A program made the translations under genes and the position numbers. A stretch of 64,000 nucleotides of DNA from an uncultured Erysipelotrichaceae bacterium (GTDB taxonomy: Bacteria > Bacillota_I > Bacilli_A > Erysipelotrichales > Erysipelotrichaceae). The notes under the pieces are model-generated. The model was not told the DNA's origin. It searched no databases and saw only the letters and a program-made list of their open reading frames with translations. Shown here piece by piece: positions 29,293-36,011 of the stretch (positions are counted from its first letter, which is position 1; the number at the start of each line of letters is the position of its first letter). The stretch spans positions 3,018 through 67,017 of the forward strand of contig CADBEA010000007.1 in NCBI GenBank assembly GCA_902793635.1, read 5' to 3'.

Positions 29293-29595
29293 ATGAGAAC
29301 GATTTCCGTTGAACCCGGACAGCTTGAATCCTGTGCTGCCCGCATGGAAGACAAAAACCAGGATTATCTGCGCTGCATGCAGGATCTTTTCGCGGCGGTG
29401 GACATGATGTCGTCCGCCTGGAAAGGGAAGGACAATATGACATTCACTTCCCAGATCGGCAGATTTGAAACAGATTTCCGTCAGCTTTCGATCCTCTGTT
29501 CACAGTATTCTGACTTTCTCAGAAACAGTGCCAGAGCATACCGTGACACACAGGATGAACTGACATCCCAGGCAAACGCACTGGGAACGATGTAA
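29293..29595 (+). CDS. WXG100/ESAT-6 family protein (T7SS substrate)
   Basis: 100 aa from ATG 29293 (after GGGAG); ISVEPGQL N-terminus; central W-K-G. Confidence 0.88.
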   Translation: MRTISVEPGQLESCAARMEDKNQDYLRCMQDLFAAVDMMSSAWKGKDNMTFTSQIGRFETDFRQLSILCSQYSDFLRNSARAYRDTQDELTSQANALGTM

Positions 29596-29608
29596 AGGAG
29601 GAGGATAA

Positions 29609-29908
29609 ATGGACCAGATCAGTATTTCTCTGAATGAAGTCAGTGAAACGGCTTCCCGCATCAGACAGCTGAACCAGATGATGTATGATGCTTTATTGGA
29701 AATGAAGAAGGAGATGAATCTTCTGTCGGGGACCTGGATTTCGGAAGGATCGGAAGAGATCCGTTCCCGCTTCGCCATGTTTGCCGGACGTTTTGACCGT
29801 CAGAAGACAGTCATTGACGAATACGCGCGATTCCTTGAACTGACAGTATCCAGCTATGATTCGCTCGAGTCGGCAATTACCGGCAATGCGGCAGGCATAC
29901 AGTATTAA
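29609..29908 (+). CDS. Second WXG100/ESAT-6-like protein
   Basis: 99 aa, AGGAGG RBS, helical, central WISEG, C-terminal YDSLE. Confidence 0.82.
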   Translation: MDQISISLNEVSETASRIRQLNQMMYDALLEMKKEMNLLSGTWISEGSEEIRSRFAMFAGRFDRQKTVIDEYARFLELTVSSYDSLESAITGNAAGIQY

Positions 29909-34900: not shown

Positions 34901-35767
34901 TATTATCTGATCGATGATCAGAAGTTTTTCGAAACAGTGGAACTGCAGGAAAGCGGTTTGTTCAACGGCTGTATGAAAACGGTGGAGGAAGAAAAAATGG
35001 ATAACCTGTTCAAACGCCTGAAACAGGAAGATGGTATCCGCAGACTTCTGATCGTTACCGATATCGTCCGTCTGTTTCAGAATGGCGAGAAATACCGGCA
35101 GGATATCAGATTACTGCTGGAAGGAAGCAGCCGTTTTAAACTCGATCTCTGGCTGATCATGCGGACTTCATCCGCATTGAATTACCGGGAACAGACACTG
35201 ATCATTGACTTCTATTGTCTGAAAAATGAAAACAGGAATGAGATACAGACATTTCTGCAGATACCGTATAAAGGCCATATGCAGAAAACTTCGCATGGCC
35301 TATACCGCAAAGAACGCATGCTGGAATTTGCCTGGTTTCAATGCAGTGATAATGAACTCTGTAACATCTGCCATGCATATATACCTGCCAAGGAACCATT
35401 CCGGATTCCCTGCATGAAAGATGTACTGAGCAAAGAGGAATATCGGGGAGAGGGGCTGCCGCTGGGTATGCTGTATGAGAGCTACCAATGGTATACAGCC
35501 TGCGATCATTTGATCATCTGCGGTCTTTATGACGAAGAATGGCAGAAACTGCGGACGTATCTTTCAGATACCGGCACAGTATTCATGACCTATGAAGAAT
35601 TTCAGAAAATGGATACCGCTTCGCTGCGCACGTCTGATGTCATTCTGCTTAAAGATGCGGCAGAGGAATATTGCCGTTATCAGCATTTGAAACGCATGCC
35701 GAAAGACGGTGAGGGTCTGCTGATCAAAGGAGGCGGGAAGGAGGTGATACATTTTGTCAGTCTCTGA
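31976..35767 (+). CDS. essC: EssC/FtsK-SpoIIIE family type VII secretion ATPase
   Basis: FHA-like LTVGSSLKDDI; two TM helices; GPHGLIAGTTGSGKSE, IIDFKGG, IVDEFAEL, GRSLGLHLILATQKP, IWSNTRFKICLKV. Confidence 0.9.
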   Translation: MMFVYHTENDNGKGCVLNKSRVTMSVLGFSVLLFEQEDKWYLRLPHQLRADRRNPMRENTAIRISSNEQGTYADLYFVPTLPSYNAYVKYQYPGKPLTVGSSLKDDICYDLPLICTEAFTIDPSRHVIVKNKGLAAADLNGRIIRDEAGFQSGDVFSFFSLRIVFYQDFMMISGLLPLQDTLIRYVRKPDAQKIPEIPMMQYHYDAPAPRRPAIDCHLKVPQINDDGIVSSVFLSMAPALMMASASLTAGSLNAYRSYMAGRSFIEILPSVLLPAVMLVSALLWNPLQRRYEKKQKRIRRERIIAEFHDEAEEWINEMDQYVRRYNSYAAAVTLMPEMCTEQYMKENRFYCHHGTDVLLCFGMAKGRIRVNYENPLVTREKDLQQIIERINSAADQAAEAAAVYALTSYKRIVIEGTYETFLHLSAYTVTYLYPDIRLCFLCSEHILKQHMWIYEAASAGYDGSRMLFINSEDLQEYIDEMPDTDGKLVIFSIDSPHDLITGCDIPVLYFEAEHGRHQCDLRVRADGENLQIMDQLYHETYISRIDDCYDDALLYKIGRKDHANPISRQGSGGFLAMLKAAGAQDLKIAERWLMNEDSTDLKCVIGLDESGRQIILDLDENGQGPHGLIAGTTGSGKSELLLSMILSLAVNYSPERLQFVIIDFKGGSTFQSISHEDLALPHLTAMLSDLDADDMQRALFCLKDLLRQRELAFRTLSSIHQIPVRNLKDYRRFLQKDDPLDKLADIVLIVDEFAELKRERPDFLVELVRIARLGRSLGLHLILATQKPGGIVTDQIWSNTRFKICLKVSEKQDSAEMIHCSDALYLKEAGSFILYADERIQKGRCGYLHQECGSQKNQISVLDERGHVIHTGGTEEPAGETEFMAVLKEIVSAGGYQRKNLWLKILPDLHTEDDVWKKGLFALLDDYEAQKYGEIRVLADIPASHAVLSSDPAETSSFLKGLVYALASVREAEDEYYLIDDQKFFETVELQESGLFNGCMKTVEEEKMDNLFKRLKQEDGIRRLLIVTDIVRLFQNGEKYRQDIRLLLEGSSRFKLDLWLIMRTSSALNYREQTLIIDFYCLKNENRNEIQTFLQIPYKGHMQKTSHGLYRKERMLEFAWFQCSDNELCNICHAYIPAKEPFRIPCMKDVLSKEEYRGEGLPLGMLYESYQWYTACDHLIICGLYDEEWQKLRTYLSDTGTVFMTYEEFQKMDTASLRTSDVILLKDAAEEYCRYQHLKRMPKDGEGLLIKGGGKEVIHFVSL

Positions 35768-36011
35768 CAATGTCCGCATTTTCATCTGCTTCACGGCAGC
35801 GGAAAGATGCTATGAATGTGTCTGTCAGAAAAGCAGATCATTTAACGATATTCTGCCGGAAGTATACAGAATGTTTCAGACGGAACTGATGGACCGGTAC
35901 CGTCTGGAAGATTATCTTGTATATGAAAAAAACAGCGGCATCCTGTGTGATCCGCATGTTTCATTGAATTCATTGGGAGTGCGCAGCGGTATGATCTTTC
36001 AGATCTTCTGA
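35754..36011 (+). CDS. Putative YukD/EsaB-like ubiquitin-fold protein
   Basis: 85 aa, GGAGG RBS, overlaps essC stop; ends SLNSLGVRSGMIFQIF like YukD/EsaB C-termini. Confidence 0.55.
   Translation: MSVSDNVRIFICFTAAERCYECVCQKSRSFNDILPEVYRMFQTELMDRYRLEDYLVYEKNSGILCDPHVSLNSLGVRSGMIFQIF

Follow-up and report, generated by a model that had tools for sequence, protein, structure and literature searches.

A 6.7-kb module of five translationally coupled genes, located on the + strand of the 64-kb stretch of DNA analyzed here (the window), probably encodes a functional, reduced type VII secretion system (T7SS) of Erysipelotrichales that is kin to T7SSe-like clusters of other Bacillota and has lost their kinase, phosphatase, and FHA control layer. 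In the ORF map of the window, the module spans 29293-36011 and has the gene order A1-A2-I-C-B, corresponding to esx1, esx2, a lipoprotein gene, an essC-like gene, and a small gene for an 85-aa protein. The five coupled + strand genes described in an earlier note on this DNA were all recovered, as were the boundaries it had named, rbfA and a convergent radical SAM gene. Its gene types were upheld by profile for the WXG100, WXG100-like, and EssC-type ATPase genes, and at the level of fold only for the SLH and ubiquitin-like assignments. The features of the locus are as follows.

28809-29225: rbfA, the upstream flank of the module
29200-29245, + strand: terminator-like hairpin and T-run at the 3' end of rbfA
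29293-29595, + strand: esx1, 100-aa WXG100 protein
29609-29908, + strand: esx2, 99-aa WXG100-like partner
29886-31979, + strand: lipoprotein, 697 aa, overlapping esx2 by 23 nt (alternative start at 29856)
Lipoprotein aa 1-26: signal peptide and lipobox LTGC
Lipoprotein about aa 30-170: putative wall-binding domain of three-SLH fold
Lipoprotein about aa 175-610: large long-strand beta domain
Lipoprotein about aa 619-682: C-terminal Big_2 Ig-like domain
31976-35767, + strand: EssC-like membrane ATPase, 1263 aa, with an ATGA overlap with the lipoprotein gene and AGGTGA upstream
32195-32503, + strand: degenerate FHA-like domain of the ATPase (aa 74-176)
32654-32830, + strand: two transmembrane helices of the ATPase (aa 227-246 and 263-285)
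33755-34465, + strand: D1 ATPase domain (aa 594-830), sole site of Walker A and Walker B motifs
34613-35764, + strand: degenerate D2 and truncated D3 remnant of the ATPase
35754-36011, + strand: 85-aa ubiquitin-fold (beta-grasp) protein, with a TTG start and a 14-nt overlap with the essC-like gene
35999-36877, - strand: radical SAM/SPASM gene, convergent with the small gene and overlapping it by 13 nt

The module is separated from the nusA-infB-rbfA operon by the hairpin at the 3' end of rbfA, which folds at -17.6 kcal/mol (z = -3.1 versus shuffles) and has an 11-nt loop; a terminator scan missed it and folding showed it. A stem and T-run occur at the equivalent place in three related contigs (L002, L005, and L009). 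A promoter scan at the module gave no credible promoter, with promoter-like sites fewer than in shuffled sequences, and an Rfam search in and beside the module gave no RNA family. The good ribosome-binding sites and overlapping genes were counted as a sign of a working module. Horizontal acquisition or carriage by a mobile element was rejected on the basis of GC content (0.489 in the module versus 0.498 in the window) and conserved synteny.

The esx1 gene has the ribosome-binding site AGGGAG 8 nt 5' of its ATG, and its product matches PF06013 (45.8 bits; cutoff 27.3) and TIGR03930 (46.8 bits; cutoff 44.85), with a W-x-G-x-D-N motif that is invariant among 22 unique sequences of the family. The esx2 gene starts 13 nt after esx1, with GGAGGAGG 5' of it. 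Its product scores 23.6 bits against PF06013, under the cutoff of 27.3, and 124.9 bits against NF035934, above the curated cutoff of 100 bits; the family name is an annotation label. In 26 unique Esx2 sequences, W-x-S-[DE]-[GA] stands in place of WXG, and the C-terminus contains a conserved S-Y-[DE]-x-L-E-x-x-I-x-x-N-A (YxxxE) motif. Both proteins have counterparts in the T7SSe-like cluster L010: Esx1 is 46% identical to its A1 protein, and Esx2 is 35-41% identical to its A2 protein, which passes NF035934 too (118.7 bits). The pair (dN/dS of 0.00-0.04 for esx1 and 0.03-0.06 for esx2) is more conserved than the neighboring housekeeping genes rbfA and truB. Esx1 and Esx2 would form a WXG100 heterodimer, in which the W-x-G turn of Esx1 and the C-terminal YxxxE helix of Esx2 may make up a composite export signal.

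The EssC-like protein matches FtsK_SpoIIIE (E 4e-31), and its best NCBIfam matches are EssC and EccCa. The top model is the Firmicutes EssC equivalog TIGR03928, whose cutoff of 778.4 bits is not reached (308.2 bits, compared to 1030.8 bits for EssC of L010). BLASTP aligned aa 82-1152 with a canonical 1525-aa EssC (P0008), homology to EssC extending from the FHA region to D2, and the top PDB matches were YukB and EccC, with D1 matching YukB (PDB 9qks) at E 4e-58. The FHA-like domain was aligned by hhalign with the second FHA domain of canonical EssC (probability 93.7%, E 1.8e-7); pairwise alignment with P0008 and family alignments showed that family members vary at the G-R and S-x-x-H positions that bind phosphothreonine and depart there from the canonical residues. 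A hydropathy scan of the five proteins placed the only predicted membrane-spanning segments of the module in the two EssC-like helices, which align with those of canonical EssC. Across seven family members, D1 keeps an invariant Walker A (GTTGSGKS, aa 631-638) and Walker B (VLIVDE, aa 747-752). By the same pairwise and family alignments, D2 lacks a P-loop, having SSDPAETS at the position of GATGNGKT in canonical EssC, and the D3 remnant is roughly 110 aa (aa 1153-1263); it is missing in L005, the shortest homologue aligned (1143 aa). Homologues are 1050-1322 aa long, and dN/dS is 0.15-0.31. In EccC, the D3 domain binds substrate. The EssC-like protein would act as membrane channel and motor, with two helices and one working P-loop domain, D1; these domains are present in the protein itself, and its oligomerization is presumed by analogy to EccC and EssC.

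The small gene has the ribosome-binding site GGAGGTG 7 nt 5' of its TTG start and a dN/dS of 0.25-0.32. Its product had no match in Pfam or NCBIfam, and five family members gave no YukD (PF08817) match even at E<=10; therefore, its identity rests on fold and context. For the AF2 model (pLDDT 82.2, pTM 0.72), the best 50 Foldseek PDB matches listed were ubiquitin, SUMO, Hub1, and other ubiquitin-like folds (query TM-scores 0.52-0.63), and a PDB profile search gave a weak ubiquitin-like match (5zmb, E 0.11). Alignment by hhalign with the YukD-like proteins of clusters L010-L012 was colinear end to end, with E values of only 0.002-0.006. Judged from its modeled fold and its place beside the ATPase gene, the small protein is the positional and structural equivalent of YukD/EsaB/TsxB; the earlier YukD/EsaB-like call is thus retained for fold and position and dropped for membership of the Pfam YukD family. 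Bacillus subtilis YukD aids YukB assembly (bioRxiv 10.1101/2025.01.24.634720), and the small protein may by analogy help the ATPase assemble.

The Cys of the L-T-G-C lipobox is invariant in 26 homologues of the lipoprotein, which has no transmembrane helix besides its signal peptide, and none at the C-terminus, in a hydropathy scan. Its AF2 model (pLDDT 83.7, pTM 0.73) matched the SLH domains of Sap and SpaA (target TM-scores 0.57-0.67, probability 1.00) and also Big_2 domains in Foldseek; by profile, Big_2 scored 23.7 bits and SLH (PF00395) 16.5 bits, below the cutoff of 20.8. The central beta domain had no confident match to PDB by Foldseek or sequence profile. Alignment of the lipoprotein profile with the 790-aa lipoprotein of L010 covered 670 columns (hhalign probability 100%, E 2.5e-49). 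By this profile evidence, the lipoprotein is a full-length homologue of a T7SSe-like cluster component, and hence not an oddity. An exhaustive HMM search placed about 100 full-length clusters, at 50% identity, in the family. The protein would be anchored by lipid on the outer face of the membrane, with its SLH fold fixing it in the wall, and may serve as the extracytoplasmic part (conduit, dock, or receptor), like EsaA/YueB or TsdI/TseI.

The neighborhood comparison proposed in the earlier note showed the same five-gene order in >30 contigs (L001-L009, L013-L036, and L039-L041) of at least four genera, with genomes of 33 to 52% GC. Carriers belong to Solobacterium, Bulleidia, Galactobacillus, and Anaerorhabdus, and the usual site is between rbfA and truB. 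The arrangement is not due to chance. The module occurs in gut and mouth bacteria of Erysipelotrichales and is common in these four genera in samples from ruminants and other guts; a single Bulleidia protein cluster by itself numbers >1000 member sequences. Scanning metagenomes with the lipoprotein profile and searching exhaustively with HMMs were far more informative than a scan of genome contigs with the EssC-like protein, which found only one locus, because it was pattern-based. A word-index search suggested only 5 EssC-like and 26 lipoprotein clusters, an underestimate according to the exhaustive HMM search. In metatranscriptomes, contigs were found for esx1, the lipoprotein gene, essC, and the small gene; this RNA evidence is thin, and DNA carry-over may contribute to it. 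Variable inserts lie beside the module in relatives and include glycoside-hydrolase and transporter genes, a group II intron, ABC transporters, and IS605.

The earlier note had recognized no EssA, EssB, or EsaA gene and no LXG toxin-immunity pair, and wider searches bore out both absences. When the module genes and 20 further ORFs of the window were scanned with Pfam, no EssA, EssB, EsaA, or LXG match appeared; the remaining window ORFs correspond to housekeeping genes annotated in syntenic loci. Neither EssA, EssB, EsaA, or LXG genes nor any for a kinase or phosphatase turned up in the window or, in related contigs, at distances up to 10 kb from the module. With the L010-L012 kinase, PP2C, and DUF6382-FHA proteins as tblastn queries, neither the window nor L001, L002, L005, L007, and L009 gave a match; for L004, the negative tblastn result applies to a contig cut short upstream of essC. 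Kinase, phosphatase, and DUF6382-FHA genes were likewise absent from 25 metagenomic loci (blastp annotation) and from L039-L041 (Pfam), and no LXG, Rhs, or immunity gene was among the variable inserts adjoining the module in relatives. The higher conservation of the Esx pair than of its housekeeping neighbors, together with this absence of toxin and immunity genes, implies that the pair itself is probably the functional product. Rather than serving as a weapon against other bacteria, the predicted exported pair probably acts on the envelope of its own cell or on the host.

The kinase, phosphatase, and FHA partner and the phosphothreonine-binding residues of the FHA-like domain have been lost together, and this coincidence was counted as a sign of a working module. 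A stronger reading, which we regard as possible and hold tentatively, is that the module is a minimal self-sufficient T7SS and an eleventh subtype, typical of several genera of the order Erysipelotrichales. It would consist of a two-helix ATPase with a single active P-loop domain that makes up the entire membrane channel, a ubiquitin-fold assembler, an SLH lipoprotein as wall guide, and an ultra-conserved, non-toxin WXG100 heterodimer in a housekeeping or host-facing role. Conversely, genes for partner proteins may lie at other sites in the genome, and the module could be the core of a larger system rather than self-sufficient, a reading that we consider unlikely. The distant parts could then be membrane partners, a Ser/Thr kinase and phosphatase such as the housekeeping PrkC/PrpC pair, or cargo toxins. 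This reading is favored by the several membrane components of all characterized T7SSs (PMC11217815), by the five or more extra genes of the related T7SSe-like clusters, and by the extent of the inspection, which covered 64 kb of the present genome and, for each relative, a region of about 20 kb. By contrast, about 20 contigs of 33-52% GC that reach past the module have no extra T7SS-type gene beside it, the FHA residues that bind phosphothreonine have been lost, which abandonment of phospho-regulation would predict, and ATPase, ubiquitin-like protein, envelope protein, and substrates are all encoded in the module itself.

It is improbable that these T7SS-type parts serve a role other than export, as an envelope or division WXG100 complex or in FtsK-type nucleic-acid translocation. 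The module does lie inside a core operon and lacks toxins, and non-secretory or developmental WXG100 roles have been reported in sporulating bacteria (e.g., PMC11406982). However, the ATPase has the architecture of EssC (FHA, two helices, DUF, and P-loop domains), not of FtsK or TraB, and has no FtsK gamma or DNA-binding domain; moreover, the YxxxE export-signal-like motif is conserved, and the lipoprotein is common to bona fide T7SS clusters. Very unlikely, too, is a decaying T7SSe-like remnant that secretes nothing. In favor of decay, the shortened ATPase has a single P-loop, degenerate D2 and D3, and a TIGR03928 score (308 bits) under the cutoff of 778. In some Bulleidia contigs, the lipoprotein gene is split by an IS605 TnpB insertion, and it appears fragmented in L031; the interruption in Bulleidia implies that the module is dispensable in at least some strains. 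Against decay, each of the five genes shows purifying selection (dN/dS 0.00-0.32), their ORFs are intact in dozens of lineages with EssC identity down to about 30%, the D1 Walker motifs are invariant, and the Esx pair is more conserved than rbfA and truB. Finally, an ordinary T7SSb with EssA, EssB, and EsaA diverged past recognition is hardly credible, even with a Firmicutes EssC model as top NCBIfam match, given that the sole other module ORF encodes a lipoprotein without a transmembrane helix beyond the signal peptide, a topology incompatible with EssB (a single-pass pseudokinase), EssA, or polytopic EsaA, that there are two different WXG100 genes instead of one EsxA, and that the nearest relatives are clusters that carry a kinase and a phosphatase.

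Every system studied has at least four membrane components, and for this reason it is still debated which parts suffice for type VII transport. A conserved five-gene module of 6.7 kb in which a single protein spans the membrane would make a compact target for reconstitution and cryo-EM, and offers a way to ask what WXG100 proteins do alone, without toxins. As a reduced relative of T7SSe, the module is also an evolutionary example in which a phospho-regulatory layer was shed along with the matching binding residues. Source annotations name the ATPase and ubiquitin-like genes "hypothetical protein," "AAA family ATPase," or "DNA segregation ATPase"; annotation-based surveys will therefore miss the module.

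According to Garrett, Higginson & Palmer (2024), a T7SS in the broad sense has a TsxC ATPase and a TsxA WXG100 protein, usually with TsxB, and absence of EssA/EssB/EsaA is normal in the non-b subtypes T7SSc-j (PMC11217815). The module has both an ATPase of EccC/EssC architecture and co-encoded WXG100 proteins. Since that absence is normal, the earlier description of the module as a stripped-down T7SSb was off the mark; its nearest fuller relatives are T7SSe-like clusters with kinase, PP2C, and DUF6382-FHA genes. The suggestion that the module might be undescribed fared better: we found it in no published survey, including the variant survey consulted (PMC11217815).

Like T7SSb (Staphylococcus aureus Ess and Bacillus subtilis Yuk), the module has a two-helix EssC with an FHA-type N-terminus, a WXG100 substrate, and a ubiquitin-like accessory protein. 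Unlike T7SSb, it lacks EssA, EssB/YukC, EsaA/YueB, LXG toxins, and immunity genes, the first three being absent from the module genes, the 20 window ORFs, and related loci; it has a WXG100 heteropair instead of an EsxA homodimer, and its EssC-like protein is under the TIGR03928 cutoff. The mycobacterial T7SSa pair EsxA/EsxB (ESAT-6/CFP-10) is likewise encoded by two adjacent, different WXG100 genes. In T7SSa, a YxxxD/E-type motif near the C-terminus of one WXG100 partner is the export signal, and the module pair has such a motif in one partner. By contrast, the module lacks EccB, EccD, EccE, and MycP, only one partner keeps W-x-G, and sequence similarity to T7SSa Esx proteins is at the WXG100 superfamily level only.

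T7SSg (Acetivibrio, Paenibacillus) is, like the module, a simple five-component system, with two WXG100 proteins, a ubiquitin-like protein, an ATPase, and one extra component (PMC11217815). However, its ATPase TsgC lacks FHA domains, whereas the module ATPase has a detectable FHA-like domain; its fifth component TsgL is a DUF5050 beta-propeller without a signal peptide, whereas that of the module is an SLH/Big_2 lipoprotein; and it adjoins Tad pilus genes, of which there are none in the window ORF map. Assignment to T7SSg was rejected on the FHA-like domain, the lack of a DUF5050 match, and the Foldseek matches of the lipoprotein, which were SLH and Ig-like with no propeller.

T7SSe comprises TseA1, TseA2, TseB, TseC, the kinase TseD, the PPM phosphatase TseF, the DUF6382-FHA protein TseJ, the single-pass membrane proteins TseH/K, and TseI, which has a Sec signal, Ig-like domains, and, at its C-terminus, a transmembrane helix (PMC11217815). 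In our comparison, T7SSe and the related T7SSj, both of Bacillota, were represented by metagenomic clusters L010-L012. The nearest EssC relatives outside the family lie in such clusters, in the order C-B-A1-A2-lipoprotein-...-DUF6382/FHA-PP2C-kinase. These clusters and the module share two different WXG100 genes with A2 in NF035934, a small ubiquitin-like gene that overlaps or follows the ATPase gene, an EssC-type ATPase whose N-terminus has an FHA-type domain, and a large secreted envelope protein with an Ig-like domain, that of L010 being the lipoprotein homologue. The two WXG100 proteins, TseB, and TseC all have counterparts in the module. By contrast, TseD, TseF, TseJ, and TseH/K are absent in or near it; the FHA phosphothreonine-binding motif conserved in TseC is lost; and the ATPase has a single P-loop rather than three and is shorter by about 260 aa. 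Compared to TseI, the envelope protein has a lipoprotein signal peptide, an SLH fold, and one Big_2 domain, is lipid-anchored, and lacks the C-terminal transmembrane helix. The gene order is A1-A2-I-C-B instead of C-B-A1-A2-I, and the module is embedded in the rbfA-truB housekeeping region. We conclude that the module is an unclassified relative of T7SSe and not a wholly new machine.

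The module lies at window positions 29293-36011 and comprises five ORFs, all on the + strand, which overlap or are separated by short gaps and are preceded by good ribosome-binding sites.

29293-29595, +, esx1, with AGGGAG upstream
29609-29908, +, esx2, starting 13 nt past esx1
29886-31979, +, lipoprotein gene, overlapping esx2 by 23 nt and encoding the lipobox LTGC
31976-35767, +, essC-like gene, entered by an ATGA overlap, with AGGTGA upstream
35754-36011, +, small gene, TTG start, 14-nt overlap, with GGAGGTG upstream

Upstream lie nusA, ylxR, infB, and rbfA; downstream are a radical SAM/SPASM gene and a TtcA-like PP-loop gene, followed by truB, ribF, rsmF, and a RelA/SpoT-domain gene. 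The radical SAM/SPASM gene (35999-36877, -, 292 aa) converges on the small gene with a 13-nt overlap, and the PP-loop gene (36844-37629, -) is next after it. A radical SAM gene is found beside the module in most relatives (loci L002, L004, L009, L016, L024, L025, L040, and L041), which may reflect functional linkage or mere synteny. Module and window agree in GC content (0.489 and 0.498). The end of rbfA carries a hairpin and T-run (fold -17.6 kcal/mol; z = -3.1) with equivalents in relatives, implying that the module is probably a separate transcription unit; no promoter for it could be placed in a promoter scan. Metatranscriptome contigs include exact matches to esx1 and also reach into the lipoprotein, essC-like, and small genes, which hints that the module is transcribed.

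Elsewhere in the window, Rfam matches (17238-17432, 42532-42658, 11832-11904, 43906-43979, and 45781-45852) comprise a T-box leader, L20 and L21 ribosomal-protein leaders, and two tRNA genes. The T-box leader precedes a class I aminoacyl-tRNA synthetase gene, which we take to be valS. A 347-aa membrane-anchored protein (16181-17224, +) has only a weak SH3_3 match, and its C-terminus looks like a 3D-type wall-associated domain; the 427-aa ORF opposite its gene is probably spurious.

Esx1 (100 aa) is a regular WXG100 protein (PF06013, 45.8 bits; TIGR03930, 46.8 bits). Esx2 (99 aa) passes NF035934 (124.9 bits; cutoff 100), and the mention of pores in its family name is an annotation label only. 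W-x-G-x-D-N is invariant among 22 unique Esx1 homologues, and W-x-S-[DE]-[GA] stands in place of the W-x-G motif in 26 unique Esx2 homologues, which end in a near-invariant S-Y-[DE]-x-L-E-x-x-I-x-x-N-A. This conserved, signal-like C-terminus fits the YxxxD/E pattern that is the type VII export signal of T7SSa substrates. From these motifs, Esx1 and Esx2 would form a heterodimer bearing a single composite signal. The pair is 100% and 98% identical to that of one relative, whose TruB is 89% and EssC-like protein only 76% identical. Comparison of the pair (29293-29908) with housekeeping neighbours (28809-29225 and 37623-38507) showed that these presumed substrates evolve more slowly than both the machine and the neighbours, truB included.

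The EssC-like protein (1263 aa) aligns over residues 82-1152 with a 1525-aa EssC from outside the module family (P0008) and scores 308 bits against a cutoff of 778 in the EssC equivalog model. The FHA domain at residues 74-176 (hhalign probability 93.7%, E 1.8e-7) is degenerate: its phosphothreonine-binding G-R and S-x-x-H positions are not conserved. Two transmembrane helices (227-246 and 263-285) make it the only membrane-spanning component of the module, and a DUF-type linker follows them. D1 is the only intact P-loop domain (Walker A, 631-638; Walker B, 747-752) and the single active ATPase site; D2 has no P-loop, and D3 is a remnant of about 110 aa that is missing from the shortest aligned homologue (1143 aa, L005).

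Residues ~30-170 of the lipoprotein (697 aa; model pLDDT 83.7) resemble the wall-binding three-SLH domains of Sap from B. anthracis and SpaA from P. alvei, with target TM-scores of 0.57-0.67 at probability 1.00. Residues ~175-610 are modelled as a domain built from very long beta strands, for which neither structure nor sequence gave a confident PDB match, and a Big_2 Ig-like domain forms the C-terminus. Its sole hydrophobic segment is the signal peptide. A gene for the lipoprotein intramolecular transacylase Lit (50433-51140, +; Pfam E 1.4e-37) implies that the organism makes lyso-form lipoproteins, which bears on how this one is anchored. The 85-aa protein matched no family in profile searches; it models as a beta-grasp fold (pLDDT 82), and the best 50 Foldseek matches listed are all ubiquitin, SUMO, Hub1, or other ubiquitin-like folds. 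Its profile is colinear end to end with YukD-like proteins of fuller clusters, albeit weakly (E 0.002-0.006).

A first search with the EssC-like family returned five clusters at a minimum of 48% identity. The lipoprotein was a better handle, giving 26 clusters in a word-index search; the best 150 matches of an exhaustive HMM search included about 100 clusters (50% identity level) that were full-length. A metagenome scan yielded 25 module loci. Every locus of sufficient length has esx1, esx2, the lipoprotein gene, the essC-like gene (1050-1322 aa), and the small gene in this order, and most loci sit between rbfA and truB. Sources, where named, are Solobacterium, Bulleidia, Galactobacillus timonensis (a cultured carrier; lipoprotein WP_102343242.1), Anaerorhabdus, and unclassified Erysipelotrichaceae, plus one MAG with a Lachnospiraceae label; most of the samples are gut metagenomes, from ruminants or other sources. 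Host GC spans 33 to 52%, which implies that the module is old and vertically inherited.

Several loci depart from the window's arrangement. In more distant lineages, a gene for a 565-aa M3-family oligoendopeptidase (PepF-like) lies immediately downstream of the ubiquitin-like gene in the same orientation (L005, 15846-17543; L007, 16072-17772; L009, 16276-17973; also L018, L019, and L029); it is not at this position in the window's lineage. One lineage has a group II intron reverse transcriptase/maturase gene between rbfA and esx1 (L026, 7959-9236), and in others, inserts with glycoside-hydrolase/transporter or ABC-transporter genes adjoin the module, implying that insertions recur in the rbfA-truB interval. 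Variant locus L038 (166-5680) has, after the lipoprotein gene, a 334-aa ORF without a Pfam match and a 790-aa FtsK_SpoIIIE ORF, which may represent a split or further shortened EssC-like gene.

dN/dS of the module genes of the window against two related loci, L001 and L002
esx1: 0.00 (L001), 0.04 (L002)
esx2: 0.03 (L001), 0.06 (L002)
lipoprotein gene: 0.09 (L001), 0.19 (L002)
essC-like gene: 0.15 (L001), 0.31 (L002)
small gene: 0.25 (L001), 0.32 (L002)

Purifying selection thus acts on the module. By analogy with EccC and EssC, the EssC-like protein would oligomerise into channel and motor. YukD promotes assembly of YukB in B. subtilis, according to a preprint (bioRxiv 10.1101/2025.01.24.634720), and the ubiquitin-fold protein could act likewise on the EssC-like protein. 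The substrate would be the Esx1-Esx2 heterodimer, recognised via W-x-G and YxxxE. The lipoprotein would be the extracytoplasmic part, a counterpart of EsaA/YueB or TsdI/TseI that is held by its lipid anchor and attached to the wall by its SLH fold. The earlier note's statement that no LXG, toxin, or immunity gene accompanies the module was borne out: none, nor any Rhs gene, occurs with it in any lineage examined. This absence and the unusual constraint on the Esx pair lead us to favour, as the weakest step of this proposal, a role of the pair itself, either in the envelope of the cell that makes it or directed at the host, over the killing of other bacteria.

Our gene inspection covered the window and, in relatives, the surroundings of the module, which leaves some room for a module that is not self-sufficient and has partners encoded elsewhere in the genome; we consider this unlikely. 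The architecture is a poor fit for a role outside secretion or in DNA translocation. That the module is a decaying remnant might be argued from some Bulleidia contigs, such as L029, where an IS605-family TnpB element (5074-7275; OrfB_IS605, Cas12f1-like TNB domains) splits the lipoprotein gene into pieces (4319-5074 and 7275-8618), and from L031, where this gene looks fragmented. Moreover, 251-aa lipoprotein fragments recur in a 1073-member cluster, suggesting that natural knock-outs circulate. These disruptions imply that the module is not essential everywhere, but selection and intact ORFs across deep divergence contradict decay. A disguised T7SSb is ruled out locally, because the one extra protein, the lipoprotein, has a topology that does not fit.

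The earlier note had taken the lack of EssA, EssB, and EsaA as distinctive. That reading falls, because most of the at least 10 T7SS gene sets described by Garrett, Higginson & Palmer 2024 (PMC11217815) also lack them, so their absence is unsurprising in itself. Its proposal of an undescribed system holds insofar as the survey's available text and supplementary text contain no entry for Solobacterium, Bulleidia, Galactobacillus, Anaerorhabdus, or Erysipelotrichaceae, and our literature search found no publication linking these four genera with T7SS and no later paper with a subtype name past T7SSj; it needs narrowing in that the module is a variant of known T7SS diversity.

The nearest EssC proteins outside the module family (P0008, P0009, and P0010) belong to clusters ordered EssC(FHA), YukD-like, WXG100, WXG100, large secreted protein, small membrane proteins, DUF6382-FHA, PP2C phosphatase, and Ser/Thr kinase. 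This component set is that of T7SSe, and T7SSj is similar (PMC11217815). In L010, a fuller T7SSe-like metagenomic cluster, A1 is 46% identical to esx1 and A2 35-41% identical to esx2; A2 also matches NF035934. The 790-aa L010 lipoprotein is homologous to ours (670 columns, probability 100%, E 2.5e-49). L010 EssC scores 1030 bits, enough to pass the EssC model, and its FHA residues are canonical; neither is true of the module protein. This shared kinship of A1, A2, lipoprotein, and EssC implies that the Erysipelotrichales module looks like a derivative of a T7SSe-like lineage. It appears to have retained C and B together with A1, A2, and the envelope lipoprotein, and to have lost the kinase, phosphatase, FHA partner, and small membrane proteins; none of these lost genes was detected in the window or next to the module in those relatives that were examined. 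Decay appears to have affected the phosphothreonine pocket of the FHA domain as well as two P-loops out of three. The module fails the defining features of T7SSb, T7SSe, and T7SSg alike, and we regard it as a candidate for a natural minimal T7SS, common in a gut and oral lineage that has received little attention.
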